From assembly GCF_963921235.1 (NCBI RefSeq), contig NC_086097.1:49168001-49232000 (forward strand): a DNA stretch of 64,000 bases. Reading direction: 5' to 3'. The DNA is from Mobula hypostoma. Taxonomy: Eukaryota. Below, in pieces: positions 9,401 to 60,722 of this stretch (position 1 is its first letter; the number at the start of each line of letters is the position of its first letter). The translations under genes were made by a program, and so were the position numbers. The notes beneath the pieces were generated by a model, which saw nothing but the letters and a program-made list of their open reading frames with translations, was not told the DNA's origin and did not search any database.

Positions 9401-12400
9401 AGATGGAGCTGACTAGATTTACAACCTTCTGCAGCTTCTTTCGGTCCTGTGCAATAGTCCTCCCATACCAGACAGTGATGCAGCCTCTCAGAATGCTCTC
9501 CATGGTACATCAACAGAAGTTTTTGAGTGTATTCGGTGTCATACCAAATCTCTTCAAAATCCTAATGAAGTAGTATTGGGGCCAGGTTAGGTCCTCAGAG
9601 ATCTTGACCCCCAGGAACTTGAAGCGCTCCACTTATGTTCCTTCTATGAGGATTGGTATGTGTTCCTTCGTCTTACCCTTCCTGAAGCCCACAAAATCAG
9701 CTCTTTCGTCTTACTGACATTGAATGCAAGTTTGTTGCTGCGACACCACTCCATTAGCTGGCATATCTCACTCCTGTACACCCTCTCGGCTCCATCTGAG
9801 ATTCTACCAACAGTGGTTGTATCATCAGCAAATTTATAGATGGTATTTGAGCTATGCCTAGCCACACAGTCATGGGTATATAGAGAGTAGAGCAGTGGGC
9901 TAAGCACACACCCCTGAGGTGCGCCAGTGTTGATCGTCTGCGAGGAGAAGATTATTATCACCAATCCACACAGATTGTGGTCTCCCGGTTAGGAAGTCGA
10001 GGATCCAATTGCAGAGGGAGGTACAGAGGCCCAGGTTCAGTAACTTCTCAGTTAGGACTATGGGAATGATGGTGTTAAATGCTCAGCTGTAGTCGATGAA
10101 CAGCATCCTGACATAGGTGTTTGTATTGTCCAGGTGGTCCAAGGCCATGTGAAGAGCCATTAAGATTGCATCTGCCATTGACCTATTGTGGCAATAGGCA
10201 AACTACAGTGGGTCCAGGTCGTGCTGAGGCAGGAGCTCATCTAGTCATGACCAACCTCTCAAAGCATTTCATCACTGTAGATGTGAGTGCTACTGGGAAA
10301 TAGTCATTAATGCAGCTCACATTATTCTTCTTAGGCACTGGTATAATTGTTGCTTTTTTGAAGCAAGTGGGAACTTCTTCCCTTAGCAGTGAAAGGTTGA
10401 AAATGTCCTTCAATACTCCCGCCAGTTGGTTGGCACAAGTTTTCAGAGCCTTACCAGACTTTCCTAGTGATGAGCGTACTGTACTTGTTCCACTTCAATG
10501 TCTTGGTAATGTTAGTCCCCAGATATTTGAATAACTTGACCACAGACACAGCCTGACCATTAATTTCCAAGGGGAGGGGGTAGTGGAAAGCAAAATTTGT
10601 TTCCAATGTCTTGATAGCATTAAGCTCCAAGTTGTTACAAGCACACCATGCTGCAAGGCAGTCTACCTCTCTTTGAAAGCAGGTCACATCATTATTAGAG
10701 ATGAGACCAACTACAGTCGTGTCACCCATGAACTTCAGGATTTTTATGGATTTGTCTGAGGAGGTACAGTCATTTGTATAAAGTAAGAAGAGGAGGCGTG
10801 AAAGAGCACAACCCTGGAGAGAGCCTGTGATTATAAACATTCAATCAGACTGGCAGGAGTCCAGCCATACATACTGCTCCCTTCCTGTCAGGAAGTACAT
10901 AATCCACTGACAGATACTGTAGTGTACAGCTGGCTGGGTTAGATTGCTCTGGAGCAACTCTGGAACAATAGTGTCAAAGGTGGAGCTAAATCCACAAACA
11001 AGATCCTCACATAGATGTTGGGGGAAGTCCTAATGCTGTAGAATGCAATGAAGGCACAAGTTAACTGCATCCTCAAATGACCGATTTCATAGTTCAAAGG
11101 GCAAAATAACTTTATTATCAAAGTACATGCATATCACCATACACAACCCTGAGATTCATTTCCTTGTACTCAATAAATTTATAATAGAATAATAAACAAA
11201 ATAGAATCAACTCATATGTAAAAGACACAAACTCTGCAAATACAAAATGAAAGAAATAGTAATAATAATAATAATAACTAAATAAGCAATAAGAACGTGA
11301 TGAAGAGTCCTTGAAAGTGAGTCCATAAGTTATAACACACATAAAAAATGCCGGTGAACACATCAGGCCAGGCTGCATCTATAGGAAGAGGTACAGTCAA
11401 CGTTTCGAGGGCCGAGACCTTTCGTCAGGACACATAAGTTGTAAGAACATTTCAACGATGGGACAAGTGAAGTTATCCCCTTCGGTTCAAAAGCTTGATA
11501 GTCGAGGGGTAATAACTGTTCCTGAACCGGGTGGTGTGAGTTCTGAGGCCTGGTGTGAGTATCTTCTTCCTGATGGCAGCATTGAGAAGAAAGCATAAGT
11601 TGGGTGGTGGAGGGTTCCTGATGATGGATGCTGCTTTCTTGCGAAAACACTCCATCGAGATGTGCTCAATGTGGGAAGGGCTTTACCCATGATGGATTAG
11701 GACTTGTTCATTACTTTTCGTAGGAAGTTCCGTTCCAGTGCTTTGGAGTTTCCACACCAGACTGTGATGCAACCAGTCAATATACTCTCCACCACACATC
11801 TGTGGAAGTTTATCGGAGTTTTAGATGTCATGCAAATCTTTGCAAACTCCTTCAGAAATAGAGGAGCAGCCATGTTTCCTTTGTAATTGCTTTTATGTGC
11901 TGGGCCCAGGACAGGTCCCCTGAAATAATAACACTGAAGAATTTAAAGTTGCTGACCCTCTCCACCTCTGATCCTTTGATGAAGACTGGCTCATAAAGTT
12001 CCAGTTTCCTCCACCTTAAGTCAATTATCAGCTCCTTCGTCTTGTTGACATTGAGTGAGAGGTTGTTGTTGTGGCAGCACTCAGCCAGATTTTCATTCTC
12101 CCTCCTATGTGCTGATTCATCACCAACGTTGGTTTGGCCTATGACAGTGGTGTCATTAGCAAACTTGAAAATTGCACTGCAGTCGTAAGTGTAAAGCAAG
12201 TAGAGCAGGGAGCTAAGCACACTGCCTCGTGGTGCACCTGTGCTGAGATTGTAGAGGAGATGTGGTTGTCAATCCGAACTGACGAGGGTCTGCAAGTGAG
12301 GAAATCAAAGATCCAATTGCACAAGGAGGTATTGAGTCCAAGGTCTTGAAGCTTATTGATTAGTTTTGCGGCAATGATGGTTTCAATGAAGATCGTCCTG

Positions 12401-18400: not shown

Positions 18401-21400
18401 TTAAAATAATACCAAATTATTTTTTAAAGCTAAAATCAAAAATTAAAATCAATAAATTTGAAGTATCCCTTTTCCCTCATTTATCCTGATCTTCAGCCAC
18501 CATTCCATTCGACAGAATAGGATAATGGTTTCTGTGCCAGCTTACACTGCCATATAAACTGAAGGACCTGAACTCAGCCCTTTAGTGCTCAGTCCAACAG
18601 GAGGTAGCCAGCAGTTTCCTACAACAAGGCCAGAAAAAATGAAACCATGATCCAATTCAATATTAACCTTTAACTAGACTGGTAACAGCCATGGGAAAAT
18701 ACATTCACTATTAATAGGTTATACACTCAGTAGCCACTTTATTAGGTACAGGAGTGGAACCCAGTGTGATCTTCAATTGCTGTAGCCTATCCACTTCAAG
18801 TTCACACACAAAATGCTGGAGGAACTCAGCAGGCCAGACAACATCTATGGAAAAGAGTACAGTCGACGTTTCAGGACAAGACCCTTCAGCAGGACTGAGT
18901 TGGTAATTTATGACGTTCATGAAACTAGTGATGCCACAAAGCACTCCTGTTTAATCTGTTGACTCAAACCCCTCTGAAGCTGCTCCCACTGACTGTTTCT
19001 GGGATTGATCTTCAATGTTTCCTAGACTGTTCAATTTTCACTCTCAGCTTGTTACTCAGCTTGGGGAGCATCTGTCTTCTCTGAGGCAGCAGTGACAATG
19101 GAAAGGTCTGGCACTTTTACCTGCAGGTCACATTTTCTCTGTGATCCAACCATGGCAACCATGAGAGATTAAAGTTAATATAAAGTTATACTTTTGGGCA
19201 GATGGGGCTCATCAACTGTGGTTGGCAGCTCATCTAGGAGAAGGAAGACTCTGATCTCAAACCTCCAACAACAGGAATTCTGCAGATGCTGGAAATTCAA
19301 ACAACACACATAAAAGTTGCTGGTGAACGCAGCAGGCCAGGCAGCATCTCTAGGAAGAGGTGCAGTCGACATTTCAGGCTGAGACCCTTCGTCAGGACTA
19401 ACTGAAGGAAGAGTGAGTAAGGGATTTGAAAGTTGGAGGGGGAGGGGGAGATCCAAAATGATAGGAGAAGACAGGAGGGGGAGGGATGGAGCCAAGAGCT
19501 GGACAGGTGATAGGCAAAAGGGGATACGAGAGGATCATGGGACAGGAGGTCCGGGAAGAAAGACAAGGGGGGGGGTTGACCCAGAGGATGGGCAAGAGGT
19601 ATATTCAGAGGGACAGAGGGATAAAAAGGAGAGTGAGAGAAAGAATGTGTGTATAAAAATAAGTACCAGATGGGGTACGAGGGGGAGATGGGGCATTCAC
19701 ATAAAAGTTGCTGGTGAACGCAGCAGGCCAGACTCCACACTCAGGTTGGAGGAACAACACCTTATATCCTGTCTGGGTAGCCTCCAACCTGATGGCATGA
19801 ACATCGACTTCTCTAACTTCTGCTAATGCCCCACCTCCCCCTCGTACCCCATCTGGTACTTATTTTTATACACACCTTCTTTCTCTCACTCTCCTTTTTC
19901 TCCCTCTGAATATACCCCTTGCCCATCTTCTGGGTTTTTTCCCCCCTCCCCCTTTTCTTTCTCCCTAGGCCTCCTGTCCCATGATCCTCTCATATCCCTT
20001 TTGCCAATCACCTGTCCAGCTCTTGGCTCTATCCCTCCCCCTCCTGTCTTCTCCTATCATTTTGGATCTCCCCCTCCCCCTCCCACTTTCAAATCTCTTA
20101 CTAGCTCTCCCTTCAGTTAGTCCTGACGAAGGGTCTCGGCCTGAAACGTCGACTGCACCTCTTCCTAGAGATGCTGCCTGGCCTGCTGCGTTCACCAGGA
20201 TCTCAAACCTCCACTGCCTTGCAGCTATATCCCCCCATGGGGACAAATTTGGGAGTAAACCCTGAGGGAAAGCTCTGGAACTGGAGCCCGTAAGGTAGTT
20301 GTATGTTGAATTCAACGATGACTGGCAACTCCTGTGACGCTGCTGGTGCCAAACTGTATCGGTCTCTGCTGTTTCTTTGGGTTTATCAGATGTATGGAGA
20401 AGGGGAGCTTGCTACATGGACAACAGCTTGCACTTCATATTATATTGCCCAGGCTTGCGTATCTAGACAGCTAGGACACAACATCCATGGTCGGCCTTGA
20501 CCAACGGCCTCAGACTCAGATAAGGTTATAGCAAGGTACTTATAAAGTTGTCCAAAACAACAGTAGTCTTGGGAATTTGGAATATTATAGAACTCAGCAA
20601 AGGGGGACAAGAAAATTGATAAAATGTTAAAAAGGAGTAACTTGGCAAGAAACATAATGGATCATGACAGCTTTTATATACACGTCAAAAGGAAAAGATT
20701 AACAAGAAAAATGTGATCCCATATAGAGAGGGAAGAATTTATAATAAAGAACAGAGAAGTGGCAGAGAAATTAATCAATTACTTCATATTTGTCTTCACA
20801 GAAGATGTAAAATCCTGCCATAAATATCAGAAAGCTGCTCTAAATGAGAAGAACAAAGGAAGGTACTTAAAAAAAACTAAAGAGTGGGTAATGCTAAATT
20901 ACGGTGAATCCCAAGAAATTGACTGTGTTAATTCCAGAACTTTGAAAGAGATTGTGAATGTCTTGGATATAAAATTCTGTAATATGTTCTGACAGGAATG
21001 CTGCATATCTCTGGTTAGGTCCACAGATTAGAGGGGTTTGGAAGGATATAGTCTAGGTGCAGGTGGATGGGACCAGGCAGAAGATCAGGTTGCCCTGGAC
21101 TGAATGGACTGGAGAGCCTGTTTCTGTGTTGTGGAACTCTGTGATTATATAACTACTGGAATAGGCTCAGAGGTCCAAATGGTTCCTATGTCATATGTTC
21201 TAACATACTCTAAGTTGTATCCAAAATGAAATATGAGGAGTTTAGTGAGATTTGTGGAAGCATTCGCCATGGGAACAGTTGACTGTGAGGGGAGCCCTGA
21301 GGTGATTGTGGTGGAGTGAGGTGAGAAATCTTAAGAAAATAAAAAAACAAAGATTGTGTGGGATTAATCTTATAGAATTTGCTCTCAGCCCTCAAGCAGC

Positions 21401-24400
21401 TTTAACACCATGTGACTAATGTGGACTTAGTGAGAGATGTAAAATTATAAGGAAAAGCAATACGCAATTATTAATATTTGGAATTTGACCAGCAAAGGAT
21501 TACAAATATTTGGAAGACATTCACAGCTTTATTTTTTTCCACTATTATTAATGGTTACCAAGAGTTGTGCAATAAAAACTGTTTCCCCATATTTCATTGT
21601 GCAGTCCTTACCATCCCTGATTAAATAATGTGTTATATGCGTTGCTGAATTAATAGATATTGATTATGTTTAAATTAAAGGCGCACATACACATCACCAG
21701 GGAGATGCTGTTTAATAGAAAATCCAATAAATAATGATGGAATATCTAATAAAGATTTTTATCTTTTGTGAAATGAGTATAAAATACTCAGGATTAGAAA
21801 TTTATTCTAAGAATATGTCAGCTTAGATGGAAGTACTAAATGGACCTATAGTAGCTTCATGTTACAGTCTGCTTCAATAATTTTGGAACCAAGAACATAT
21901 AACAACTACCTTCGGGCATGGTTAGTGCTACCAACCAAAAGATAAATTTCTACGTTCAACTTTGATACATTCTATGGTTTAATAGTCTACAAATAAAAAT
22001 AAATAATGACTTGGGTGAAGAACTAGAGGGTCAATAGTATTCTCGAAGGGATTATGCCTTCAGGAAATGGGGTGGAAATGTAGCAGATTGTCCTTCACAG
22101 AGACTGGAGCTAGGCATGTAATAATATAACTGTACAAGTTCAATCATCCTTTTGATGAAAATATTGCTTTTGTCTGACTGACACTACTGCAGATTGAACT
22201 GCTCATGTTATCAAAATATTATCAGCATTTGATGAAGTGCATTATCCATTAGTTAAATAATTTTAAAGAATAACAACATATAAAAATACAGAATGCATTA
22301 AAATCTGGCAGTTTTGTGCCACATTTGTCATGTGTTATGGACACTGAGAAATCTCTTCTCACAATTCGTTCTGAAATTCATTTTAGAAATTTTAACCTTT
22401 GAGTACATAGAAATAATGGAGGTAACTTGAAAGCAAAACAAAGCTCATAACTGTGATGGAATTTTACCGATGGTTTCCTGTCAATAATGTTAATGTAAAT
22501 CAGTAACTACACAAAAAAATAAAAACATTATGTATAGTAAACACGAGGAATTCTGCAGATGCTGGAAATTCAAGCAACACACATCAAAGTTGCTGGTAAA
22601 TGCAGCAGGCCAGGCAGCATCTCTAGGAAGAGGTACAGTCGACGTTTCGGGCCAAGACCCTTCGTCAGGACCCAAAACGTCGACTGTACCTCTTCCTAGA
22701 GATTACGTATAGTAATTTTCTTTGGCCAAGAGACCAAATCACATATCCATTGTGAATTTTAGCTTCAGATTATGAACCTCCTTTTTTTAGCATTCTTTTC
22801 ATCAGGTTTCAAATTCCAAGTTCTAAAGTTTGTGCCCAAACTAGCAACTGTACAATAAGAGCTAGACACTTTAAGTACTGCTTTTCACAGACCAAAAATA
22901 ATCTAAGAATATCAGCAAATAAACCAAAAATCTTAATAAATGTAATTCCATTTCAAAATACTTACACTTTGTCTGCTAAATTTCATTAAAATGCAGGGAA
23001 CAATTTTCAAATTAAGTGGAATTCACTCTGGTTTCAATATTTTTTTATATTTTCATAGTCATATCTTCCCTGAGTTAATGTTTCTTCTTTTCATTTCCAA
23101 TTTTCCTTGCATTCCTTCCTCATTTGTGCTCAGTTTAATACACAGTAATTAACTCTTTAACTGTAGCAGGAATAAATTCCACGAATTATTATCCTAAGTA
23201 TTACTTAACCACTTATGTTTCTACCCTTCAAACCTTACTCAGTTAAGCAGGATCAAATAACTGCTTTGCTAAGCCATGTCTACAATGCTTAATTACGATG
23301 GTATCACAATTATATATGAAAAGGTAATGCTACTAAAGTGTATTTTGCTCACTGCTTCATATTGTTGCTTTTTTATTGGGAGCATTTCGAAAGCCTAGAT
23401 GCTGAAAAGATTACACACTGTTAATGAGCTTCCTTAATGGTCTTGTACTCAATACCTGCTGAAAGTAGATTCTGATAACCATGTGGGATCTGCTGCTACT
23501 AGTGTTCCAATTAGTTGAAGCAACACTTCTGTTCCGAATTCCTTGTTTCAGGAAAGCCTCGAGTTGACTAAAACTGCTACAAAGTATTGACTTAAGGCTC
23601 TGAACGTAAAATCCATTTTTGCTTTCCCGGATCCGCAGACCATTAGGATTTCGAGCCTTTGACAGGAGGTCCTTAACCTTTAAAACCAAAATAAGTAACC
23701 ACAACAGATAATGCAAATCTCTGACTGGTAGCTGGCAACTAACGTCTGATCATTTTTATTAATTTACTGCAAATCCATAAGCAAATATATTTATGAATAA
23801 TAGCAATGTTATTCTAAAATACTACAAAACATTTATTTTGCACACTGCTTCATATCATCACTCTAATATTACTGTTTATCAAATATCACATTATGTTCAT
23901 TGATTCCAACAGACTCAATGTTGGAAGGCTTCAGCGTAGTCCGTGAGCTCCACTTGTGGTCTTACACCAAGTAGCTAGAAAATATGGATTCTTATAACCA
24001 TGTAAGTAAAATGAATAAACTCTTCTTGGTTTTCCAGCCGGGTACAGGTGTCGTTTATAACCGATGCATCATCCCTGATGAAGATGTCAGAGTTTGTCAT
24101 CGAAATATTGGTTATAATCAATACCTGTACCTGGCAGGAAATTCCAAGAAGAGTTTATTCGTCATATACGCCAGGAAAGCACTAAATCCTTTTTCAAGCA
24201 AGTAAAAATTTTTAAAAAACTGCAGACACTGGAAATCTGAAATAAAAACAAAAAATAATGATCCACAGACCATTAGGATTTTGAATCTTTGACAGGATTC
24301 TCAGATTTGTTTCTCCTCCCACAGATGCAGTCAATTCAGTGTTTCCAGCACTTTCTGTTTTTATTTATGATCACTGTTACATACCCCGTAACTGGGTTGC

Positions 24401-27400
24401 CAAACCAGCAGAAATGGATCACTCAGTTGGAGTCTGGATTACTAGAACTAAGAAAGTTTTATTAAAGAAACAAGCAACACAGTACTCTAATCAAAAGGAT
24501 AATGAATGCAACAGTTCAGCAATGATAAACACACATGTACACAGAATTAGGATAACAGGATCAATCAAGCTCTATCGTCATCTAGGGGTAAATGACCAGT
24601 TTCAAAGTGACGCAAAGTTCAGTTCAATTGAATTCAGTTCAGTTCGCAGTAATCACTGCCGTGGGAGATGGACAGTGGGGGGAAGGAGAGAGAGAGCAAA
24701 AACGAATGAATATTCAAACGGCTTCCACACAGACCTTCGATATTCTTTGCAGTCAGCTTTCGGGCGAGCCCTTTGTGATGTCTTCTGAGGTCACCGACCG
24801 TGACCCCTCCGTTTCCAGATACGATCGTTTCTCTGCGGTGAACCTGGCACCCAGGCAAGGGCAGACACACACCAGGTTCCCGCTGATCGTGCCTTTCCAC
24901 CCTGTGCGTCTATGGCTTGGTCCCGCGATCAGCCTTCCAAAACTTCCCACCGACTTGTGGGAGACGCACCACTTCCAGGGTCTCGTTACCTCGGGGTGTC
25001 GTGTGTGTCTTGCCTTAGCGAACCTGTCCCTTTTTATCCCCCTGCTGGGGTATCGCCTGTCCGTCACTTCAAACAGTTCAGGGTTCAAAGGGGGAGCCGA
25101 TCTTGACAGCTCTCCTTCCGTTAAGCTCTCCCGTCCCTTCATTAACATCTCCAAATGCTGCTCCATTGTTTTCCTTATCTCTCTTTCTCCAGAAGACAGG
25201 TGGCAGACCAACTGCTGATCCCACTGGTGCCAGCACAGGACAGCTAACATCTTAATCTATGTGTATTCTCGTCACATCACCATGTGGGATCTCCTTCTAA
25301 TGATGTTCCAGTTAGTTGTGGGAACACTTGTGGACATGTTTCCGAAACATGTTACTTGATAATGGCATAGAAGTGCTCAGATTATAAGACAGTGACGCAG
25401 AATAGATAATTTCCTTTGGCAGAGTTGCCAGGAGACAGATGCTGTGGGTGCAAGATTAAATTAATGGGACAAAATGAAGTGCAGAAGCACTTCTATATGG
25501 AGGAATTTTTCCAGGGCTGGTGATCAAGGCAGAAACAATGCTAACATCCTTGATCGGAGATTAAGTTGTTGTTGGGAATAGTTAGCAGGATACAAGAGCA
25601 AGATGCGTAACTTGCTGCAAGCACTGGCCCATGAAGACAGCAAACCCATTATCAGTGAGATCCCAATTGAATAGTTTGAGCCAAATGATATATTCTCATA
25701 TTGTAATTATATACTTCTAGTAAGAGACCAGAATTTCCTGGGAATTGCTGCCGATCATCACTTGGCTGCTGGCATTTACTGCTTCTCCTGTAAATCCAGC
25801 AAGTGTCGGTCTTCTCAGCAAATATAGAGGCACTGAACTTGCTGGGCAAGTTACCCTGGCAAATTCCTGGAAACATTGATGGAATAATGCAATAGCAGAG
25901 CACTAACTTAAAGAATCTCCCAAAGATCGGAGGCAGGAACAGCAAATCCAATCAACTTCTTCACTACTCTACTGCAAAAAAAAAGATAAACATGTTTTCA
26001 AGAGAGAATGCACCGAAGGTTCCTCTGAATGGTTCCTTGGAGGCTAAGCCTGTCATGTGAGGAGAGATTGTATAGGGCAGGCCAGGCTATTGGTTAGAGT
26101 TTAGAAGTATGAAAGGTGACTTCATCAAAACAAACAAAGTTTGTTTAGCAGAGAAGATACAAAGAGGATGTTTTACTTGTCCAAGGAGTGTGGATCTTAG
26201 GGTCAAGCTAAGGAGTAGGACATTCATGACAGAAATGACAAGAAGTTTCTTCATACAGAGGACTGTGGATCTGTGGAATTCTGTACCCCCGAGGGCAATG
26301 AAGGCTGATTCATTTTCTACATTCAAAATGGAGCTTGATAGAATTTCAGATATTAGAGTCAACTGCATGAGTGAGAATATGGAGTCAATGTTAGGCCAAT
26401 AATGAGGGCAACTTTCCTCCCTTGAAATAAATAAGTAAACCAGATGGGTTTATAATTAAAATTCCCAAATTTTAAGAACTGAATTTAAATTCCACACCTG
26501 ACAGAACTCAATGGTAGATTATTAGTCTGGGTTACTTGTGTGGTAATTTAACTGCTGTATCCAGTGGCATACCAAAGATATGGCAGATATGGCACGTGCC
26601 CTGGGCACCACTTGAAGGGGGGGGGGCGCCATTGAGCAGTTTCTATTAAAGTCAGACAAGACATCCTCAGATAGTGAAAAAAGAATTTTCTTCAGATGTA
26701 TGATCTGTCTTTGATTATCACGGGTGAGAAGCACTAGGATGGCCTTATTTCAGAGCATTGTGTAAGAAGGCCATGAAACGTTTCTTCACGAAGAAGAAGG
26801 AAAGTGGAGCTGAAGGACGGAAGAGACAAAAGTTGGAGGCGGAGGAAGCCAAGAAGTCGAGCAAGTTCTTCATGCCCTTCTTTGAAAAGCCCAGAACAAG
26901 TAGTTCAACACGTTCCATGGAGTCACCTGCACCTGCTCCAAGTTCGTTAGAATCCGAAGGTGGATCAAGTACAAATGCGTCACAAGCCGAGGAAGAAGTC
27001 AAGTCAGATAAATCTGACTATGACGAGATTAAGAGTGAGGCTGCCACAGAGAACTTGGACATGACAGGAGGGGAAGACGATGGTGGTGGTGGTGATGTTG
27101 AGTATATTGACGAGATTTTACCTGACGAGATTGAACCTGATGACACTGAACCTAGTGAACTGGATGGTGTCAAAGAGCCTCGAACCGTCATACCAGAAGT
27201 GATTGAACAGCCTGACGTTGGACTTCTGAAGTTCGACAAGAATACTGGAAAAGCAATTCTGCCTGAAGCATTGAGAACAGAAATAATAAAGCTGGGTTTG
27301 AAGTATTTCCAGAACAGTGAGGAGCCTTTCCTACTAACAAATAGCCGCTCAATGAACAAAACTTGGTTCAAGAGGGAATTGGGAAATGGTCGTGGTACGG

Positions 27401-40258: not shown

Positions 40259-40320
40259 GGTCCAAACCAGTTTAAATTTGGCACCTAGTGGTCCAAACCA
40301 GTTTAAATTTGGCACCTGGT
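40259..40320. repeat. 31-bp tandem duplication
   Basis: ggtccaaaccagtttaaatttggcacct(a/g)gt x2. Confidence 0.9.
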
Positions 40321-42708: not shown

Positions 42709-43118
42709 CACACATCAAAGTTGCTGCTGAACGCAGCAGGCCAGGCAGCATCTCTAGGAAGAGGTGCAGTCGACATTTTAGGCCGAGACCCTTCGTCAGG
42801 ACTAACTGAAGGAAGAGTGAGTAAGAAATTTGAAAGTTGGAGGGGGAGGGGGAGATCCAAAATGATAGGAGAAGACAGGAGGGGGAGGGATGGAGCCAAG
42901 AGCTGGACAGGTGATTGGCAAAAGGGATACGAGAGGATCATGGAACAGGAGGTCCGGGAAAAAAGACAAGTGGGGGGGGAACCCAGAGGATGGGCAAGGG
43001 GTATATTCAGAGGGACAGAGGGAGAAAAAGGAGAGTGAGAGAAAGAATGTGTGTATAAAAATAAATAACAGATGGGGTACGAGGGGGAGGTGGGGCATTA
43101 GCGGAAGTTAGAGAAGTC
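42709..43118 (-). mobile_element. Penelope pseudo-LTR copy (same family as 19268-20198), mutated hammerhead
   Basis: Near-identical to 19305-19696; flanking repeat gaagcag; hammerhead at 42767-42804 has GAAAC changed to AAAAT. Confidence 0.85.
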
Positions 43119-44205
43119 GAAGCAGGAAAGGAATAATGCTATGATACAGCAAGAACACTCAAACAAACAGAAAATCAGCTTACAAAATGAATTACTTTAG
43201 ACATTCTATTATTTAACAGAGATTAATGTCTTATCTTTTATTCACATCAGAATGATCAAAAGTAAAATGTATTTTATTTCAAATAGTCTGAATCAAATGG
43301 CATCTCATGTATATTGTATACATTTCTCTGACAGTAAATTGGACCCTTGATACTATAAAATAATTTTTAAAAACTTGCCCAGTACAACTCTTACTTTTGT
43401 ACAAGACTTAGGACAGCCAGGTGTTCTGGTTTCTCCTTTCTGCTCTCTACTGCATGGTAGTTAAGTCATAAGCGTGAAGCTACAGCAGAAACGCACATCC
43501 TATTTCAAACCCGGTAACAATATGCCACATGTTATTCTTTTTAAATATCCTGTCCAATTAATCATTCCTCGTGTTCAGTTACTGAGCCTCTCTCCACTGG
43601 CATTGATTTAATGGCCATAATAGATGCTATTAATTTAAATGACAGATGAAAACTTGTCAGATTTAATAATGCTTTATTCATTTTTGTATTCTATTAAAAT
43701 AAAATACATATAGATATTAAGGCCAGCCAGGTCAACTATTTTGCACTTCACTATGTGTCACATACATTTATCAAAGCCTACAGTTAAATTAACATGTTTT
43801 CATATACAGTAGATCACAAATTTTCACTGTGGAATATATCCAAGAGTTCTAAATGATTAATTATATTGTATGTAAACAGTATGTATCCAATTGCATCCAT
43901 ACATTCTCCAAGAAAAGTGCCTTCTGCTTTAATTTTGCATCAGCTGTTAAAATTTCTTGGTTTGGATCAATTCAATTTGAACTAACTACAGCGCCAGCTT
44001 GTGGTGACTGGATCAAATGGCATGGAAAGTTTGACAAGGGCACGAATAATTTTACAGTGTAATGTTTGTCAAACTTATCCGGGGCTAGTATGTATTAGAA
44101 TATAGAATCTATTTAAAAGACTATCAGGTCAAGTAGTGAGGAATCATTTCAACTTGTATCCAATGTCACTTTGGTAGAAATGATACATGTTCTTCCTTGT
44201 TCTAA

Positions 44206-46510: not shown

Positions 46511-47234
46511 ATTTAACTAATGGGATATATACTGTATCCAGTCAATAATGAATATCATGAAGCAATATCATTATTACTGTTTGAAACGAAAGAAGAATTC
46601 ATGTAAAGCCAGATTTCTGTAAGTAGTAATTTATAACCCAGAGAGACGGCGTATTCTTTAAAAAGACATATTCAATAAGAGTTGAGTTCTGTTAATTTGA
46701 TCTCCATCAAAATTTAGAAGGTAGTTATATTGTACATTAAGGAAATGTGAAAGGTGGTTTCAAATTTTCCAAAAATTGGAAAAAAAAATTATTCAGAGTC
46801 TTGAATGTGAATCATACAGCAGAGAGAATTTAGTTAACTGGATAATAAGGAATTAAAAGATAGCATCAGTTGTGATAACTGAAACTAATGGATTCTTACA
46901 AAAACCCTTCTGTTCTTTAATACTCATTTGCAAAGGAAATTGATCATCATTACTAGGTCTGGCCTAATTTTGACCCCAAATCAACAGAAATTTGATTGAA
47001 TGAGAAACAACAAAACAAGGTGCCAGAAACACTCAGCAGGCCATGTTGCATCTCCGGAAACAGGCATCCCTTGTTACGGGCTCAAAATTTTAGTACTTAT
47101 GAACCAATAGTACTTCCACCAGGAAAACTGCAACTTCCCAAAAATGATTAAGATTGGGCCAACAATCCTGTTATAAATGAATAATTAGTAAATAAAATGT
47201 TTTCCTTGGCAGCAGAATAATATCATTAGATCAT

Positions 47235-47860: not shown

Positions 47861-48039
47861 AGATCATCTTTGCTTTACACTGATGCTAAATGTAACTGTT
47901 TAAAGTCCAGGCTTGGGGATGGTGATGTGAGTGAGGTGAGCATTCGGGCAGGTTTTTACCTTTGGACACAGGCTATAGTTACAAATGTAATGCCAGGTTG
48001 CCATTATCACACCATTGAAGGTATTCTACTGGCAATATT

Positions 48040-51000
48040 CTTTCTTTTTAAATCTTTTTATTGAGTAAGTATACAAAAAAGGTAAGCCATATAAACATTA
48101 ATACAATGTTAAAGTATAATAAAATTCCAAAAGATAACAATACCAAAAAGAAAATACTACAAACAATGTAATTTAAGCATAAGAAACCAAGATAACATAA
48201 TAGTATACTAGATTTTATATATATCAATGGAAAAAAAGAAAAAAAAAACCCCAAAAAAAAAAAACCCACCGTGCAACTAACTAAAAGCAAAGCAAAGCAA
48301 TGGGCTAACTTGAAACCAAACAGAGTTAAACTTAAAATCACGTCCTCAATCCCGACCTCCATTAAAACAGTGAAGAGAAAACAAGAAGGGTAAATATTAC
48401 ATTAAATGAAAATATCGAATAAAAGGTCCCCAAATCTGTTCAAATTTAAATGAAGAATCATAAAGGTTACTTCTAATTTTCTCCAGATTCAAACATAAAA
48501 TCGTCTGAGAAAACCAAAAAAAGGTAGTTGGAGCATTAAGCTCTTTCCAATGTTGTAAAATACATCTTTTCGCCATTAAAGTAAGAAATGCAATCATTCT
48601 ACGGGCTGAAGGGGAAAGATTACTAGAAATTTTAGGTAGTCCAAAGATAGCAGTAATAGGGTGAGGAGAGATATCTATATTTAATACCTTAGAAATAATA
48701 TTGAAAATATCTCTCCAAAAAGTTTCCAAAGTAGGGCAAGACCAAAACATATGAGTTAAAGAGGCTATCTGCCCCGAACATCTATCACAGAAAGGATTAA
48801 TATGCGAGTAAAAACGCGCTAACTTATCTTTGGACATATGTGCTCTATGAACCACTTTAAATTGAATTAGGGAATGTTTAGCACAAATAGAGGAAGTATT
48901 AACTAATTGTAAAATCTGCCCCCAATCATCCACAGAAATGGTAAGCCCCAATTCCTGTTCCCAATCTACCCTAATCTTATCAAATGGAGCTTTCCTAAGT
49001 TTCATAATAATATTATAAATCATAGCCGATGCACCTTTCTGACATGGATTAAGGTTAATTATCGAATCTAAAATATATATAGGAGGAAGCATTGGAAAGG
49101 AAGTAAGTATAGTACTTAGGAAATTTCTAACTTGTAAATATCTAAAAAAATGTATTCTTGATAAGTTATATTTATTAGATAATTGTTCAAAAGACATAAG
49201 GGAACCATCTAAAAATAAATCCAAAAACCGTAAAATACCCTTAGTCTTCCAAGTTTGAAAAGCGCGATCCGTAAAAGAGGGAGGAAAAAATATGTTACCT
49301 AAAATAGGAATCGCTAACCCGAATTGATTAAGATCAAAAAATTTTCTGAATTGAAACCAAATGCGCAAAGCATATTTAACTATCGGGTTAGAGACCTGCT
49401 TAAGACGTTTCGAATCAAAAGGAAGAGAGGAACCTAAAATAGAACCAAGTGTATAACCCTGAACAGATTGTAATTCCAATGCTACCCATTTAGGAATAAA
49501 TAGTATGTCCCGGTCAAGTAACCAAAATTTCATATGTCGAATATTAATAGCCCAATAATAAAATCTAAAGTTAGGTAATGCTAAACCTCCATCTCTCTTA
49601 GCTTTCTGTAAATGTATTTTACCCAGTCTCGGATTCTTGTTCTGCCAAATAAATGAAGAAATTTTAGAGTCAACTTTATCAAAAAAAGATTTAGGAACGA
49701 AAATTGGTAATGCCTGAAACACATATAAAAATTTTGGCAAAAAAAACATCTTAACTGCATTAATACGACCAATCAAAGTTAAATATAAGGGAAACCATTT
49801 AGATGAAAGTTGAGTAATATGGTCTATTAATGGTAAAAAGTTAGTCTTAAATAAATCTTTATGTTTACAAGTAATTTTAATCCCAAGATATGAAAAGTAA
49901 TTATTAATCAATTTAAATGGAAATTTATAATATAAGGGAAGATGTTTATTAATCGGAAAAAGTTCACTCTTACTAAGATTTAATTTATAACCTGAGAAAA
50001 GACCAAATTGTGCTAATAACTCTAAAACAGCAGGAATGGATCTCTCAGGATTAGAAATATATAAAAGTAAATCATCAGCATAGAGTGATAATTTATGGGA
50101 CTTTAATCCCCGAGTTATCCCAGTAATATTTAAAGATTCTCGAATAGCAATTGCAAGAGGTTCTAATGCAATATCAAATAATAGGGGACTAAGAGGACAG
50201 CCTTGTCGAGTACCACGAAAGAGAGGAAAAAAAGGTGAGTTTAAGGAGTTAGTACGAACCGAGGCTACAGGGGAGTAATATAACAGTTTAATCCAGGATA
50301 TAAATTTCAAGCTAAAATTAAACATTTCAAGCACCTTAAATAAATAAGGCCATTCTACTCTATCAAAAGCTTTCTCGGCATCTAAAGAAATAACACACTC
50401 AGGAACATTTTGTGAGGGAGTATAAACGATATTTAACAATGTACGAATATTATAAAAAGAGTAACGACCTTTAATAAAACCCGTTTGGTCTTCCGAAATA
50501 ATAGAAGGAAGTACTTTTTCTAGTCTATTTGCTAATAACTTAGAAAAAACTTTAGAATCAACATTTAATAAAGATATTGGTCTATAAGATGCACATTGAG
50601 CAGGGTCTTTATCCTTCTTTAGTATTAAAGAAATTGATGCTCTATTAAAAGATTCCGGAAGTTTACCAAGTTTCAAAGAAGCCTCAAAAACCTTATAGAG
50701 CCAAGGAATCAATAAAGAAGCAAAACATTTATAAAATTCAACGGTAAACCCATCAGGGCCAGGAGCTTTCCCCAGATTCATAGAAAAAATAACATTCTTA
50801 ATCTCATCCATTGTAATGGAAGTATCTAATAAAGAAGACATATCCTGTGAAATCAGAGGGAAGTCTAACTTATCTAAAAAATCATTCATATATTTAGAAT
50901 CTCGAGGAGACTCTGATTGGTATAAAGAAGAATAAAAATCACAAAAGGTTTGATTAATCCCCACATGATCCAATATCAATCGATCATTTTGGTTATAAAT

Positions 51001-52126
51001 CTGATTGATTTGAGATTTAACATAATTAGATTTCAATTGATTAGCCAGCAGCTTGCCAATTTTATCACTGTGAACATAAAAATCACTTCTTGTTTTCTTT
51101 AATTGGTTTACAATCGAGGACGAGAGTAGTAAACTGTGTTCCATTTGAAGTTCAGTTCTTTGTTTGTATAGCTCCTCAGAAGGAGCCATAACATATTTCT
51201 TATCAATTTCTTTAATCTTGTCCACAATTACCATCTCCTCCTGCTTCTGTTTCTTCCTCAAAGCAACGGAATACGAAATAATCTGACCCCGAATATAGGC
51301 TTTAAAAGTGTCCCAAAGAGTGTTAACCGAAATATCTTCTGTATGGTTAATTGTAAAAAAAAGCTCAATCTGTTCATTCATAAAATTAACAAAGTCCGAG
51401 TCCTGAAGCAACAGCGAATTAAAACGCCATTGTCTATTGTTTGGTATATTGGCCATAATTTTAATAGAAAGCTTAAGTGGAGCATGATCCGAAATGGTTA
51501 TAGAATCATAATCACATTTAATCACTGAAGGAATGAGACGAGAATCAATGAAAAAATAATCAATTCTTGAATAGGAATGATGAACATGTGAAAAGAAGGA
51601 AAAATCTTTTTCCTGAGGATGCAGAAAACGCCAAATGTCCGTCGACCCAGAATCAGAAAGGAAAAAATTAATCAAATTTGCAGATTTATTAGGTAAAGTC
51701 CGTAAAGGAGCCGAACGGTCCAAAGCTGGAGATAAACAGGTATTAAGATCTCCGCCCCAAATCAATGAAAACTCGTTCAAATTCGGAAACTGATCAAACA
51801 ATGATTTATAAAATTCCGGACAATCCATATTAGGAGCATAAACATTAACCAAAACTACTTTTTTATTAAATAATAAACCACTAACCAATAAAAATCTACC
51901 ATTCGGATCAGAGATAATATCCTGTTGTATAAAAGTAACTGAGGAGTCTATAAAAATAGAGACGCCTCGAATCTTAGCATTGGAGTTCGAATGAAATTGT
52001 TGTCCCTTCCAAAATTTGAAAAAACGTAGTCTGTCCCCCCTCCGTACATGGGTCTCTTGTAAAAATAAAATTTGTGCTTTAAGTCTCCGGAACACTTTAA
52101 AAACTTTTTTCCTTTTAATAGGATGA
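48040..52126 (-). mobile_element. L1-clade LINE, 5'-truncated at the very start of ORF2, young
   Basis: 15-bp TSD tctactggcaatatt (48025-48039 / 52127-52141). AATAAA at 48057-48062 with an A-rich tail. Uninterrupted ORF2; no ORF1 or 5'UTR. Confidence 0.95.
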
Positions 52127-52200
52127 TCTACTGGCAATATTGTAGCAGCAATAGAAGATAAGGAACCAGAGTTGATCTTTGAGCTCCTTAACCTTGCCAT
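48397..52200 (-). CDS. L1 ORF2-like protein (APE endonuclease + reverse transcriptase + C-terminal Cys/His motif), 1267 aa; N-terminal ~25 aa host-derived
   Basis: LQETH, NVYAP, GGDLN, YSRIDY, SDH (EN); KAPGPDG, DAEKAFD, GTRQGCPLSP, YADD (RT); CDRC..HMFWSC. Confidence 0.9.
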   Translation of the reverse strand: MARLRSSKINSGSLSSIAATILPVDHPIKRKKVFKVFRRLKAQILFLQETHVRRGDRLRFFKFWKGQQFHSNSNAKIRGVSIFIDSSVTFIQQDIISDPNGRFLLVSGLLFNKKVVLVNVYAPNMDCPEFYKSLFDQFPNLNEFSLIWGGDLNTCLSPALDRSAPLRTLPNKSANLINFFLSDSGSTDIWRFLHPQEKDFSFFSHVHHSYSRIDYFFIDSRLIPSVIKCDYDSITISDHAPLKLSIKIMANIPNNRQWRFNSLLLQDSDFVNFMNEQIELFFTINHTEDISVNTLWDTFKAYIRGQIISYSVALRKKQKQEEMVIVDKIKEIDKKYVMAPSEELYKQRTELQMEHSLLLSSSIVNQLKKTRSDFYVHSDKIGKLLANQLKSNYVKSQINQIYNQNDRLILDHVGINQTFCDFYSSLYQSESPRDSKYMNDFLDKLDFPLISQDMSSLLDTSITMDEIKNVIFSMNLGKAPGPDGFTVEFYKCFASLLIPWLYKVFEASLKLGKLPESFNRASISLILKKDKDPAQCASYRPISLLNVDSKVFSKLLANRLEKVLPSIISEDQTGFIKGRYSFYNIRTLLNIVYTPSQNVPECVISLDAEKAFDRVEWPYLFKVLEMFNFSLKFISWIKLLYYSPVASVRTNSLNSPFFPLFRGTRQGCPLSPLLFDIALEPLAIAIRESLNITGITRGLKSHKLSLYADDLLLYISNPERSIPAVLELLAQFGLFSGYKLNLSKSELFPINKHLPLYYKFPFKLINNYFSYLGIKITCKHKDLFKTNFLPLIDHITQLSSKWFPLYLTLIGRINAVKMFFLPKFLYVFQALPIFVPKSFFDKVDSKISSFIWQNKNPRLGKIHLQKAKRDGGLALPNFRFYYWAINIRHMKFWLLDRDILFIPKWVALELQSVQGYTLGSILGSSLPFDSKRLKQVSNPIVKYALRIWFQFRKFFDLNQFGLAIPILGNIFFPPSFTDRAFQTWKTKGILRFLDLFLDGSLMSFEQLSNKYNLSRIHFFRYLQVRNFLSTILTSFPMLPPIYILDSIINLNPCQKGASAMIYNIIMKLRKAPFDKIRVDWEQELGLTISVDDWGQILQLVNTSSICAKHSLIQFKVVHRAHMSKDKLARFYSHINPFCDRCSGQIASLTHMFWSCPTLETFWRDIFNIISKVLNIDISPHPITAIFGLPKISSNLSPSARRMIAFLTLMAKRCILQHWKELNAPTTFFWFSQTILCLNLEKIRSNLYDSSFKFEQIWGPFIRYFHLM

Positions 52201-52884
52201 TCAATATCATTATAGTTAATATTTGCTCCTAGCTCAGTTCCATATTCTTTACTGACCTTGGATAGCTAAAATCTAGTTATTTCAGATTTAAAGTGATTAG
52301 TTGCTCTAGCATTTACCACTTGTTCAGTTTGTATGAGTAAATAATTTCTAAAGAAGTCCTTAAAGTTCACATTTTAAGGTTCTTCATGTGACAAGCATTA
52401 ACATAAAATGTCTCTTCTGCTCTGTCTACCATTTGTTATAAAGTTTAAAAATCTTAACTTTCTGTATTCTGGACAGTATCAGGTCTAGTACATATAATAT
52501 CAATATTGAGTAACCCTTGGAACCCAGGAAAGAGCTGAGGAGATCTGTGCTACCCTCCTTCCAAAGTAAATGTCCTTTTTTAAAGTCCAGGGGCCTGAAT
52601 TGCACACGGTACTCTGTATATGTTCTAACAGGACTTCTCTTTTAGTTGTAAGTGATAGCATTTCACTTGCCTTGTTGATTATTTTATTCCTGACACTTCA
52701 TGTTAATGATTTATATATTTGGACCCTTAAGTCATTTAGGATCTCCATTCTTTCACAGTTAGTAAAATTCTTTGTTGTTCCTTTGGTCTAAAATTGTTGG
52801 ACTTGCATTTCCCTGTGGTGAAATCCAGCAGGCACAGGTTTACTTTATCTGTCAATGTCCCTTTATAATTTAATACTCCTATGC

Positions 52885-53245
52885 ACATTCATAGAGATAC
52901 ACAGCACAGGAATAGGCTCTTTGACCCATCCAGTCCGTGCCCACCATCAGCCCTCCACATGCACTAATCCTGTTTTAATCCCATTTTTATTTTCCACACG
53001 TTCTCAAGTCCCTCCAGGTTCTACCATCCATTCCCTCTATACAAGGGACAATTTTACAGTGGCCAATTGACCTATCAGCCTGTACACCTTTGAGATGCGG
53101 AAGGAAACTGAGACGCCTGGAGGAAATTCATACAGTCATAAGGAGAATGCACAAGCACTATACAAACAGCGCTTGGAGTTCAGAGGGAAAGCAGGACACT
53201 GGCACTGCGAGGCAGTGACTCTACCAGTTGTGTCATTGTGCTGCC
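52885..53245 (-). mobile_element. V-SINE-like element within a degenerate CR1 (about 52440-53760)
   Basis: caattttacagtggccaattgaccta...ggaaactgag...cctggaggaaa, reverse-similar to the 44206 SINE. Confidence 0.6.
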
Positions 53246-55423
53246 TGAAATCCAGTCTTGACACATTCTAACACTCTGTCATAATGATCAAAGTCCCTAG
53301 AATAAAATGAATGTTTGAGATTGTTGTGATGTTCCACTAGTCTCTTTGTTCCAATTCCTTTCCTCCTCCTTTCTGTTTACTACCACCTTGCCAGTCTCTT
53401 AACCAGATTAATTTTTTGTCTTCAATAATTAAGCTTTGATTTTAGTTCAAAGACTCCACATGGATACCTGCTGAATGCCATCGTAAACTATACATGAACT
53501 AAATACATTGTCTCTCTACTACTAGAGTTACTTCCTCAAAGAATTCAATTATATCCATTAGGCATGGCCTATGCTTCACAAATCCACATCTAATCTGTTC
53601 AAATTTACCAAGCACTAAGTAACTCTGTCCTTAATTACAGATTTTGATAACTTTCCCACAACAGATGTTAGACTAAATAATTTATAATCTCCTGGTTTTT
53701 TACCCCCAATTCCATACCATCATGCATTGTACTTGCAATTCCAATTTATCAGACAGCTGAAGGAAAAAAAAAAAAGCTTTGCAAGATGATGGCTGAAGAT
53801 GCACAGTGTTTCTAAAACTGTCATCTCCTAAAGGTACCTTTTTTTGCTTCATTTTTCTACTGCAGCTTTGTAGTTCACATTTATTTTAATGCATTCATAG
53901 GGAGCTCAGATTGTTTTTCAATAACTCAATTGGCTGACATGCTACCAAAAAGCAGAATGTAACCTGCCAGGTCTCCACAAGATGTGAAATTCCTAAAGAC
54001 TGAAAACAACTGAAGTAATAAAATTCTTTAATTTGGTGCAAGTACAACCTCCTGTGCTCCAAAATTATTTGAAAGATTTATTTAAAATATGCTGATTAGA
54101 CGAAATGTGGCTAAATGTTTTGTGCAACAAAATCATCTCAGTAAAATTCTCAGAAAAATACTAATACCAAACTGTAGCACCCCAAAGATTTGATTCGTTG
54201 GATATCCCATATCTGCTTCCACTATGGCTTATACAAAGGCTAGCACAACTGATATCCTATGGTCTGTTCTTCCATTGTAATAAAGCCGCTCCTCTCTGTT
54301 CCTTCTCTCTGACTGACTTTATTCATCAATTGTACCTTTATCTAAGACACACAGTAGGATATTCCAAAGTCTCATGTTTCTGAATTTACAGCCTTTTACC
54401 TACTCGCACAAGGCATTATTCATTATTCCCAACCGTAAAACTATATCACTATCTAGGTCTTTCAAAAGGAAGCTGAGGCACTGATTTTGATTCCTTGTCA
54501 CTTATGGTATTTATGACAACTATAAATACTCAGAAGTTCCTTTTCTGTATGTATAGTATTCAGAACTTGTGATTTTTTTCTGTACAATATAATGAAATGT
54601 GTATAGGTTTTGAGTTTGATTTGAAATGGTCTTTGAAACAGGTGGCCTCCTAATAAAGGATCAGGACCAATTGATTCATTAGAGTATTGATGTTAACTGG
54701 TGGCAGCTGGCATTTTATGCTCTTGGACCAATACCTTGGCATCAGAATCCTGCTGTAATGAGGGAGAGATGTATATGGCAGGAAAAAAATAAGACACACA
54801 CCAGGTATTCTGATTTTAACTAAAGCCTGGATCAAGCACATACAACATGGTGTATGTGAGACAACATCGTTTAATATCACTTTATTTGCTTGGAGCTGAT
54901 TTTTAGCATAATACACTGCACTGGACAGTTCTATTGAAACAGTAATGCTCCTACTCTGAGCAATCAGAGACCACTAAGCTAACAACAGTATAGTTTTGAA
55001 TAGATTTCTTAACTTTATACAAGCAGCAAACTCTTCTGTGATCATTTTGGCCACGAGTTTGCAAAAAAAGTTTCATTTTTATTGGAATTTACTTAATTCA
55101 TTTTTGTCTGCCCACTGGAAAGGTGTCAACATACTCCACCACATACACAAACCACAGTCCATTTGTGGATAGGTGAGAATTTTGACGATACATGCTCAGG
55201 CATAGGCCCCATCTTAATTTTTATGAGCAGAGTAAATAATTATTTTCATGTATTCACTAAAGTGTGAAGTGAATGAGAAAAGCACCTGTTTTGCTTTGCC
55301 TTGCCTTGCCTTATGCCTTACAAGGCGCGAAATGAAAGACTGTGTGGCACGCCACTCCTCCCACAGGCAGTAGGTGGCTGTTGACTCACAAAGAGCTCAT
55401 CTGCCCTTTGACAGGTTTTGTTT

Positions 55424-55658
55424 CTAGTCCTGCTGGGTGCCTACACACCCTCCTCCCTGGTTAGTCGAAGTGCACCGGGGGTGCGCTGGTTGAGTCGCCA
55501 GCAAACCGACCCGAGACAGGTCGTACTGGGCTATGTGGTACCAGTAGCAAGGCAAGGCCCTGACCTGATACCAAATTGCCCGACGCCGGCCCCCTAGGCC
55601 TGAGTAGACGTAGTGGTAGTTTGCATTGCTGTTGAATGCTGAGCCGCCATGCAGTCTG
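55424..55658 (-). CDS. Probable terminal coding exon of an unidentified upstream gene
   Basis: GC- and CpG-rich island in AT-rich, non-repeat DNA. Acceptor ttttcacctattttggaaacag(cag)|, then an open frame RLHGGSAFNSNANYHYVYSGLGGRRRAIWYQVRALPCYWYHIAQYDLSRVGLL...CVGTQQD-TAG, followed by AT-rich sequence with AATAAA (minus strand) near 55080. Confidence 0.55.
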
Positions 55659-56532
55659 CTGTTTCCAAAATAGGTGAAAACCATCATGCTTACATACTAC
55701 ATGAGCTAAGCTAAAGTAATTTTTCAATTTATTAAGGGAAAGAAATATAAGCAAAAGCAACCAATTACAAAATAAAATAATATTGGAATATTTAATATGT
55801 TAATTTAATCCATTTATGAAAGAAAATAGCAAAGTTATTTTCTCAGTGCATTTTAAACTGAGGCATTCTGTTATCAGCATATTATTGTCTCATTCTAATA
55901 AAATTAATGCTCACGTTAATGTCTTAGCAAAAGGCTACACTTCTGTTTGATTCAGGTGTCTTGTAACACATAGAACATTTCATTTGCAAAAGCTATGCAT
56001 TTTTTTTTCATTGTAGGCAAATATTTAAATTGATTTCATATTCCAGACAAACAAAATGATCAGTTAATGGCTTTTGACACAAAGATAGGTTTTGAATCTT
56101 CTGAATATTGATCTTAAGCAACCATTGTGCATTAGCTCACTTCAAAAATATTAGAGGCACTCTCCGAACATAGGAGGATTCATGTGAATGCATGTTTTCT
56201 TTTAGAGATGCAACATTTCATGTACACTGGATTCCAATTAATTGTGACACATCACGACCAGTACATTTTGGCCCAATTAGTTGAAGTTTCATGGAAATAG
56301 TAAAAAAAGACAAACGAAATAACAAATTGTGTATTTAGATGAAATACCAAACAAATTTGAACACTACCAATAATACTGCTGTACTATAAAACTGCATTAG
56401 TTCCTAATACTTATCAAAGGAGGAGGGAATTCATCCACATCACATTATTTTGACTGTAAATGAACAAAATCAGCATAGATACCTCGTGCAGATAATAGAT
56501 AGCCTTCATACAATGCTGTCGATGATTGGACC

Positions 56533-60050: not shown

Positions 60051-60188
60051 CTTTCCTCCAAATCTTATTCTTCATTATAACATTCAAGATGATTGTCAAT
60101 ACCTTCAAATTTTCTATATTTTCTAATTTGTTGAAGTAGTGAAATCATTTCATTTTTCCTCCCAGCCATTTCTGGCATCTCCAAGCCT

Positions 60189-60722
60189 CAACACAAAATA
60201 ATCTGCAGATGCTGTTGTCAAAGGTACACTCACAATGCGCTGGAGGAACTCAGCAGGTCAGTCAGCACCAGTTGAAAAGATTAGTTGACGTTCCGGGCCG
60301 AAACCCTTCGTCAGGACTGAAGGGAGAACTTTGGGGAGGGTTTGAAGAATGCTGGTAGTTGAAAAAAACAGTAATTTGAAAGACAAAGGGGTGGGAGAGG
60401 GGCTAAACTCAGGTTGGAGGAGCAACACCTCATATACCGTCCATGTAGTCTCCAGCCCCTTGGTATGAACATAGAATTCTCCAACTTCCAGTAATTCCCT
60501 CCCCCTCCCTTCCTCTATCCCTATTTCACATCACCTCCCTCATAGTTCCGCCTCCTTCTACTACTGCGCACTGTTCTCCTGCCAATCACCCCCCTGCTTC
60601 CCCTCCCCCACCCCTTTGTCTTTCAAATTACTGTTTTTTTCAACTACCAGCATTCTTCAAACCCTCCCCAAAGTTCTTCCTTCAGTCCTGACGAAGGGTT
60701 TCGGCCCGAAACGTCGACTAAT
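60189..60722 (+). mobile_element. Penelope-like fold-back insertion (related subfamily) inside the Tigger-like element
   Basis: 12-bp TSD atctccaagcct (60177-60188 / 60723-60734). About 120-bp inverted arms; [12 protein letters not shown] remnant of the endonuclease C-terminus; two hammerhead motifs. Confidence 0.85.
60684..60719 (+). ncRNA. Minimal hammerhead ribozyme motif, intact core
   Basis: agtc-CTGACGA-agggtttcggccc-GAAAC-GTC-gact; predicted cleavage after C60715. Confidence 0.75.

Follow-up and report, generated by a model that had tools for sequence, protein, structure and literature searches.

We analysed a stretch of 64,000 nucleotides (nt) of the Mobula hypostoma genome (contig NC_086097.1, positions 49,168,001 to 49,232,000; hereafter the window, numbered from its first letter) that holds part of the gene KIF28 and nine minimal hammerhead ribozyme motifs. 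The nine cores amount to seven insertions, two pairs (19363 with 20118, and 60281 with 60684) being the two arms of one insertion each. We read the motifs, at a probability of about 0.8, as minimal type I hammerheads in the pseudo-long terminal repeat (pseudo-LTR) of very high-copy Neptune-type Penelope-like elements (PLEs) of the ray, which are present here as truncated and inverted insertions.

Seven insertions with minimal hammerheads

The insertions and three older relics are listed below, with cores named by the positions at which they were first noted. Most 3′ ends lie at two GT-rich (GU-rich in RNA) sites ~36 nt apart, called proximal and distal; ORF stands for open reading frame.

11335-11431, minus strand: insertion 1 (11394), 97-nt short copy of family A; damaged core 11428-11399; 5′ end 3 nt before core position C3, 3′ end at the proximal GT-rich site
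18803-18897, minus strand: insertion 2 (18860), 95-nt short copy of a second subfamily (E); core 18892-18865; 5′ end 5 nt before C3, 3′ end at the proximal GT-rich site
19253-19267, plus strand: left target-site duplication of insertion 3, 15/15 identical to 20199-20213
19268-19697, minus strand: inverted arm of insertion 3, a pseudo-LTR that extends from the ORF stop as far as the distal end, which has the tail; core 19395-19368
19698-19731, minus strand: internal piece of insertion 3, 34 nt, identical to 19307-19340; restarts at the proximal GT-rich site (a template-jump signature)
19732-20198, plus strand: direct arm of insertion 3, with the final ~30 PLE ORF codons (stop at 19826), the pseudo-LTR and core 20123-20150; ends 48 nt past the cut site
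20199-20213, plus strand: right target-site duplication of insertion 3
22541-22701, minus strand: insertion 4 (22636), a 131-nt arm 22541-22671 (minus; 5′ end 3 nt before C3, intact core 22668-22641, full tail) and a ~30-nt inverted arm 22672-22701 (plus); duplication 22527-22540 / 22702-22715 (13/14)
24012-24199, plus strand: insertion 5 (24075), family C; inverted arm ~24013-24066 (~54 nt), direct arm ~24067-24199, core 24075-24109; one arm ~39 nt longer; borderline 8-bp duplication 24004 / 24200
42700-43120, minus strand: insertion 6 (42767), family A, 421 nt, 5′-truncated; starts in the last ORF codons; core 42799-42772
60190-60402, minus strand: insertion 7 (subfamily B), inverted arm with the tail; core 60314-60287; left duplication 60177-60191
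60403-60722, plus strand: direct arm of insertion 7, with the last ~30 ORF codons (stop at 60494), pseudo-LTR and intact core 60688-60715; right duplication 60723-60737 (14/15)
4725-4812, minus strand: older tail-only relic with no recognisable core (nhmmer E 1e-10)
29704-29782, plus strand: tail-only relic (nhmmer E 4e-6)
47015-47064, minus strand: tail-only relic (nhmmer E 0.004)

Four of the seven insertions are built head to head from inverted arms, with a tail on one end only, and arm lengths range from 95 to 467 nt. The copy at 11335-11431 sits inside another repeat, where it is flanked by the duplication 11324-11337 / 11433-11446 (12/14), and an empty-site paralog lies at 61541-61794. 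The 18860 insertion seems to be common to a second organism (organism B), because a contig of the latter covers 18860-19222, with 8 differences in 363. For the relics, the best match of the same profile search in the reversed window had an E-value of 4.5. A further inverted pair of tail-like fragments with no ribozyme core (24220-24350) lies directly to the right of the family C insertion, and two other high-copy repeats with raised contig depth, at 18711-18784 and 19192-19265, lie on either side of the 18860 copy and harbour insertion 3. The direct arms at 19732 and 60403 belong to different subfamilies and begin at nearly the same ORF codon, just before LRLEEQH; both starts are inversion junctions, with what looks like microhomology over a few bases (n=2).

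All nine motifs reported in the earlier note have the minimal hammerhead layout: a CUGANGA-like box, an extra A, stem II, a GAAA-like box, an NUH site and stem I, with a 4-nt stretch in place of stem III. A 34-nt family pattern finds six matches at ≤3 mismatches in the window and none in 100 shuffles, and in the eight related copies stems I and II are paired in 91% of 70 cells, compared to 6-49% after sliding. Covariation lends no support, because none of the nine stem pairs is altered on both sides in these copies and no compensatory change is seen. An Rfam search of the window returned no hammerhead match; its mir-5681 and MIR408 matches, below the gathering score, reflect the inverted arms only and were dismissed.

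Every core base, together with ACGU at the reduced stem III, is kept at 20118, 22636 and 60684, the same three sites that the earlier note had called intact, and the 20118 core carries a G10.1-U11.1 wobble, a pair found in four of the eight related copies. The GUU site described at 11394 is there, accompanied by further damage (G10.1A and a 2-nt insertion at stem II). Elsewhere, single core changes had been proposed; this holds for 18860 (A6C) and 19363 (C15.2U), but 42767 has two (G12A and C15.2U), 60281 adds a C-A mismatch in stem I to its A13G, and 24075 belongs to another, unrelated family (C), which has the same layout with a different stem II sequence (7-8 bp), GAAA-UAUU, an AUAU palindrome and an AUU site. 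Likewise, the ACGU palindrome of stem III applies to six of the nine (positions 15.1-16.1), whereas one has AUAU and in two it is broken (AUGU). Of 18 substitutions among five family A copies, 7 are CpG transitions, and the core has been hit as well. Besides the unrelated family at 24075, the related subfamilies number at least three.

The parent element and its relatives

Three arms (19732, 43120 and 60403) retain remnants of an ORF C-terminus with 64-86% identity to ray PLE proteins over 25-28 residues. Searching 1.84 billion proteins with the 19732 peptide gave 12 matches, ten of them with this C-terminal peptide, whose relatives are ray, shark and invertebrate proteins; the phmmer matches P0003 and P0009 were discarded as repeat-driven noise. 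The ray models P0015-P0017 combine a reverse transcriptase (RT) region with YIDD or YVDN, a CX3-4CxxC linker and a GIY-YIG domain, the last at Pfam E-values of 5e-4 to 2e-3 in ray relatives, slightly below the curated cut-off. One of them, the Mobula model P0017 (YIDD, CKRNKCYTC, GIY-YIG), reads through its stop into the family A pseudo-LTR (92% over 49 codons, 42972-43118). Judged by these relatives, an ORF with RT and GIY-YIG would be joined to the pseudo-LTR in the related subfamilies; for family C we infer PLE origin from architecture only. The earlier note's assignment to Penelope, with a minimal type I hammerhead, is supported by the ORF C-termini, the ray relatives and the core layout.

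A CX2-5CxxC linker, present in P0007, P0015, P0016, P0017 and P0020, marks Neptune and Nematis when it precedes GIY-YIG, according to the available text of Craig et al. 2021 (PMC8557442). The family is therefore placed in Neptune or Nematis by the linker motif of its relatives rather than by an RT tree, with the Neptune type favoured as part of the reading given above. Seventeen PLE proteins compared with the window revealed no other PLE coding remnant. A search for full-length PLE proteins (>665 aa) yielded none among 62 candidates, which is weak evidence, and the one locus from a metagenome protein scan (L001) proved unrelated once read. Several host gene models (VKOR-like, LAMP-like, ATP synthase c, G-protein-coupled receptor, DIPK1C and CHID1; P0004, P0008, P0011, P0012, P0015, P0049) include the PLE endonuclease C-terminus; ray gene sets thus often contain the repeat as an exon or a mis-annotation.

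The arrangement is of the minimal hammerhead/PLE kind described in 2014, and truncation, inverted arms and tails were described between 2013 and 2024; we do not read the motifs as a new family of ribozyme elements. Cervera and de la Pena 2014 (PMC4209133), in the text open to us, report thousands of scattered single minimal hammerheads from truncated elements in metazoan PLEs, and opposite-strand pairs 100-700 bp apart. The ray copies share with them the core boxes, the extra base between 9 and 10.1, the G10.1-C11.1 start of stem II, a stem I of 4-5 bp, the palindromic 15.2-16.2, the location in the pseudo-LTR, and the occurrence as mostly single scattered motifs and opposite-strand pairs. Unlike those, however, stem II has just 4 bp in families A, B and E (family C and the schistosome examples have 7-8 bp), half of the eight related copies have G10.1-U11.1, and a density of nine in 64 kb greatly exceeds the ~4,000-9,000 per genome given for Xenopus and coelacanth. 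The accessible part of that paper does not mention cartilaginous fish.

Similarities to endonuclease-bearing (EN+) Neptune elements, as far as the available portions of PMC8557442 and Arkhipova et al. 2013 (PMC3846280) describe them, include the GIY-YIG with an upstream CX2-5CxxC in ray relatives, heavy 5′ truncation, an inverted 5′-truncated arm, a 30-40 bp tail at one end, 8-15 bp duplications and microhomology-like junctions. In contrast, the window is without a full-length copy, the clade is taken from the relatives' linker instead of an RT tree, and in three of the four inverted pairs the shorter arm ends well before the proximal site. In the Anolis Poseidon element PAc (Frangieh et al. 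2024, PMC11167929, accessible text), two internal RT start sites set the tail, the protein cuts and extends both strands, the ribozyme lies upstream of the start sites and its cleavage is dispensable for insertion. Two tail-defining sites and a ribozyme upstream of them recur in the ray, as would the use of two strands and insertion without the ribozyme, whereas PAc belongs to the Poseidon clade, has an ORF starting in the ribozyme and AC-rich stem-loop start sites; the ray ends are GU-rich, with no ORF start located. A literature search found no description of the family in rays, Repbase, Dfam and most subscription papers being outside its reach; the supplements of PMC4209133 and of a 2026 preprint (family tables, one chondrichthyan) may already list it.

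Ends of the copies and how they could have arisen

Target duplications are clear in three of the seven insertions (19268-20198, 60190-60722 and 22541-22701, scores 15, 12 and 11); among 300 random zone pairs none reached 11 and 13 reached 8. Two more are borderline at a score of 8, namely 11394, backed by its empty-site paralog, and 24075. In the eight related arms the 3′ ends fall 100, 100, 97, 72, 64, 62, 48 and 7 nt past the cut site, the last being the 60684 core, where the copy stops. The two 3′ clusters are the published PLE "tail" and fit two initiation sites with a tail of 30-40 bp. The 5′ ends lie 3, 3, 5, 88, 285, 302, 321 and 391 nt upstream of C3. A constant 3′ end would be a feature of any PLE, and most 5′ ends vary from arm to arm. 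The ends are not wholly random, the 3′ ends being clustered and three 5′ ends gathering at the ribozyme start. The earlier note had proposed fixed ends as a check on its suggestion of a non-autonomous family and named extreme 5′ truncation as the alternative; it is the alternative that fits, as insertions of 5′-truncated and inverted PLEs with the known tail.

Taking published PLE work as a guide, we suggest that the PLE protein would nick both target strands ~8-15 bp apart, and that reverse transcription would be primed inside the element RNA, mostly at the two GU-rich sites ~62-64 and 97-100 nt downstream of the cut site. Synthesis of cDNA would usually abort after 100-470 nt; where both strands are extended, the two cDNAs could join head to head, producing an inverted pair with the tail on one side. 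Copying of the initial 100-130 nt would already take in the ribozyme, hence its presence in nearly all insertions. In an intact tandem parent, cleavage probably takes place in a dimer joined through ACGU, or is assisted by protein.

Several observations weigh against this reading. No target duplication was found at 18860 or 42767 (two of the seven insertions), the window holds no full-length element but last ORF codons only, family C has no ORF remnant, and exact-pattern scans of viral and metagenome contigs gave no locus. Three of the eight arms begin ≤5 nt from C3, for which P is 2e-4 to 9e-3 under geometric truncation with mean lengths of 400-100 nt, in a post hoc test. Finally, in contigs from public sequencing runs, position 19399 (the A that precedes GUCC) is joined to 18803 (the proximal 3′ end); this joint occurs in 16 contigs of run X1, 14 of X5, one of X10 and none of X19, and is among the 15 listed of 978 joints.

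These runs, four in number and all in the form of assembled contigs, were aligned to a 1.1-kb stretch (18600-19697), with contig counts saturated. In the best-matching DNA run 215,988 of 29.7 million contigs align to it, and the upstream pseudo-LTR has contig cover in every bin, as does the ribozyme; long copies are therefore also very numerous. The summed contig depth (~10 in the flanks, 1-12 million over the element) is no copy number. Accumulations of molecule ends are reported nowhere in the run alignments. None of the runs is recorded as RNA; two that were presumed to be RNA cover the element, with relatively higher depth on the ribozyme and tail than upstream, and were not used, as contigs show no level, start, strand or cleavage. 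Joints from 19296/19301 to 18803, and a series from 18824-18886 to 19330-19394, were set aside, the alignment having switched between two copies in the stretch that resemble each other. The 19399-18803 joint itself could reflect a restart after RT had reached the RNA 5′ end, or a clipping artefact, because 19399 is where the match between other subfamilies and the reference breaks off, and the letters between the joint ends are not known.

The 5′ cluster and this joint bear on a tentative refinement, less likely than not but compatible with truncated PLE insertion, in which the ~95-130 nt copies are complete run-off cDNAs and not random truncations. Transcripts would begin with the first base of hammerhead stem I, where the initiator-like YYAGTCC lies; RT from either tail site would run off the 5′ end of the RNA once ~97 or ~133 nt had been copied, and the strong-stop-like product would integrate, fold back or jump. 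The initiator consensus is YYANWYY, which YYAGUCC fits. In two subfamilies, 11394, 22636 and 18860 begin 3, 3 and 5 nt before C3, the direct arm of family C starts within 8 nt, 22636 and 24075 have their inversion junction at the ribozyme, the 19698-19731 piece restarts at the proximal site, and three of the four runs contain the joint; PLE promoters with an initiator have moreover been located in the pseudo-LTR in published work. However, only three of the eight arms behave in this way, a steep excess of very short copies would look alike, 19399 is likewise the point beyond which other subfamilies cease to match the reference (loose ends in X19, agreement 0.47), and the start bases resemble a 3′ splice acceptor. 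In D. virilis an intron ends at helix I and the start site is 46 nt plus an intron upstream. A literature search on 5′-end clustering, with most subscription papers beyond its reach, found nothing specific. The stricter proposal, that ray Neptune transcription begins exactly at the first hammerhead base and uncleaved RNA yields a fixed strong-stop-like cDNA of ~97/133 nt, whose products integrate alone, fold into tiny hairpins or jump templates, strikes us as somewhat more doubtful still.

Three other origins were rejected. A spliced template for the short copies (a branch-like CTCAC, a pyrimidine tract and CAG precede stem I) is not supported, as 18860 keeps the CAG and no copy has a first exon; an origin at the cleavage site fails with none of the eight arms beginning there; and fold-back copying cannot account for insertion 3, whose direct arm extends 90 nt beyond the inverted one on the 5′ side.

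The earlier note had raised the possibility of an abundant non-autonomous, retrozyme-like family of short non-coding units with their own target duplications. Such a self-propagating non-LTR family, with tandem transcripts self-cleaved as dimers, circularised and re-inserted by PLE proteins, appears improbable from the copies in the window. Short non-coding copies with duplications do exist (11394, 22636 and 24075, two of them borderline), but 18860 has no duplication and three arms contain ORF codons. Like the non-LTR retrozymes of Cervera and de la Pena 2020 (PMC7229834) and Li et al. 2026 (bioRxiv 10.64898/2026.07.22.740005), in the portions open to us, the ray copies have a type I hammerhead, short non-coding units, PLE-related sequence and duplications >4 bp, and the accessible part of the preprint describes pseudo-LTR-related tandem hammerhead repeats in vertebrates including one chondrichthyan; the 19399-18803 joint could mean that some head-to-tail dimers exist elsewhere. 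Retrozymes are, however, defined in these texts as 150-450 nt tandem repeats expressed as circular RNA, whereas the window has no tandem units (none of its eight tandem arrays overlaps a core), and its copies have variable 5′ ends (3-391 nt upstream of the core), ORF remnants and inverted arms. Close pairs lie on opposite strands and cannot dimerise within one transcript, and no copy in the window begins at the cut site. The three short copies are 73.8-86.1% identical to one another (~80 columns), compared to 89.6-93.5% between 22636 and the long copies and 83.5-87.3% between 11394 and the long copies; each stands at a similar or smaller distance from long copies, and they resemble neither a single amplified unit nor a family of their own. 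The cores are also minimal and not of the canonical type of published retrozymes (PMC7229834, accessible text), and the available text of the preprint reports that 8/9 predicted Xenopus dimers failed to cleave.

The host locus and the fate of the copies

The host gene occupies much of the window:

3261-38732, minus strand: KIF28, eight coding exons in the window; best protein matches in Mobula and Hypanus

Insertions 1-5 lie in its introns and 6-7 upstream of its first coding exon. Four intronic cores (11394, 18860, 19363 and 22636) are on the KIF28 sense strand and that of 22636 is intact, as would suit one or more copies co-opted to cut or regulate KIF28 pre-mRNA. We regard this as very improbable: three of the four sense cores are mutated, the density of the family already accounts for cores on the sense strand, and 22636 is predicted to be locked, together with its own inverted arm, in a 35-bp hairpin of -79 kcal/mol. 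Folding energies, which do not measure activity, predict that monomers form an inactive rod pairing the core with CGUC, and place the double-hammerhead fold 8-20 kcal/mol above the dimer minimum in all four cores tested. The near-perfect hairpin of this tiny inverted insertion (22627-22695) scores microRNA-like (Rfam mir-5681, below gathering); such PLE hairpins could be mis-called microRNA precursors or give double-stranded RNA in introns. Under the reading as PLE insertions, lone copies without an ACGU dimer partner would most likely be inactive passengers that decay neutrally.

Three other features were observed. An uninterrupted 1267-aa ORF2 of a long interspersed nuclear element (AP endonuclease, RT, zf-RVT) at 48397-52200 on the minus strand looks like a young L1/Tx1-type copy without its 5′ part, and no ORF1-sized frame was seen beside it in 52200-56000. 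A broken hAT-type transposase (DUF4371-like and hAT dimerisation matches) occupies 26728-29433 on the plus strand, in the KIF28 intron between the exons at 29980 and 23680. At 2519-3007 on the minus strand, a 162-aa open frame has an end that by eye resembles a decayed transposase C-terminus, with no Pfam match.

The family is a very abundant ray addition to a known class, and forms a natural data set in which many dated insertions record the points where PLE RT starts and stops, a step that has been demonstrated in vitro for a single element to date. A genuine 5′ cluster would pinpoint where the transcript begins, identify uncleaved RNA as the template and link PLE by-products to retrozyme birth. 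Should transcription indeed start at the hammerhead, tandem products would be ready-made ribozyme dimers, a step in the birth of retrozymes, and the PLE replication cycle would become readable from end distributions in a genome this rich in copies.

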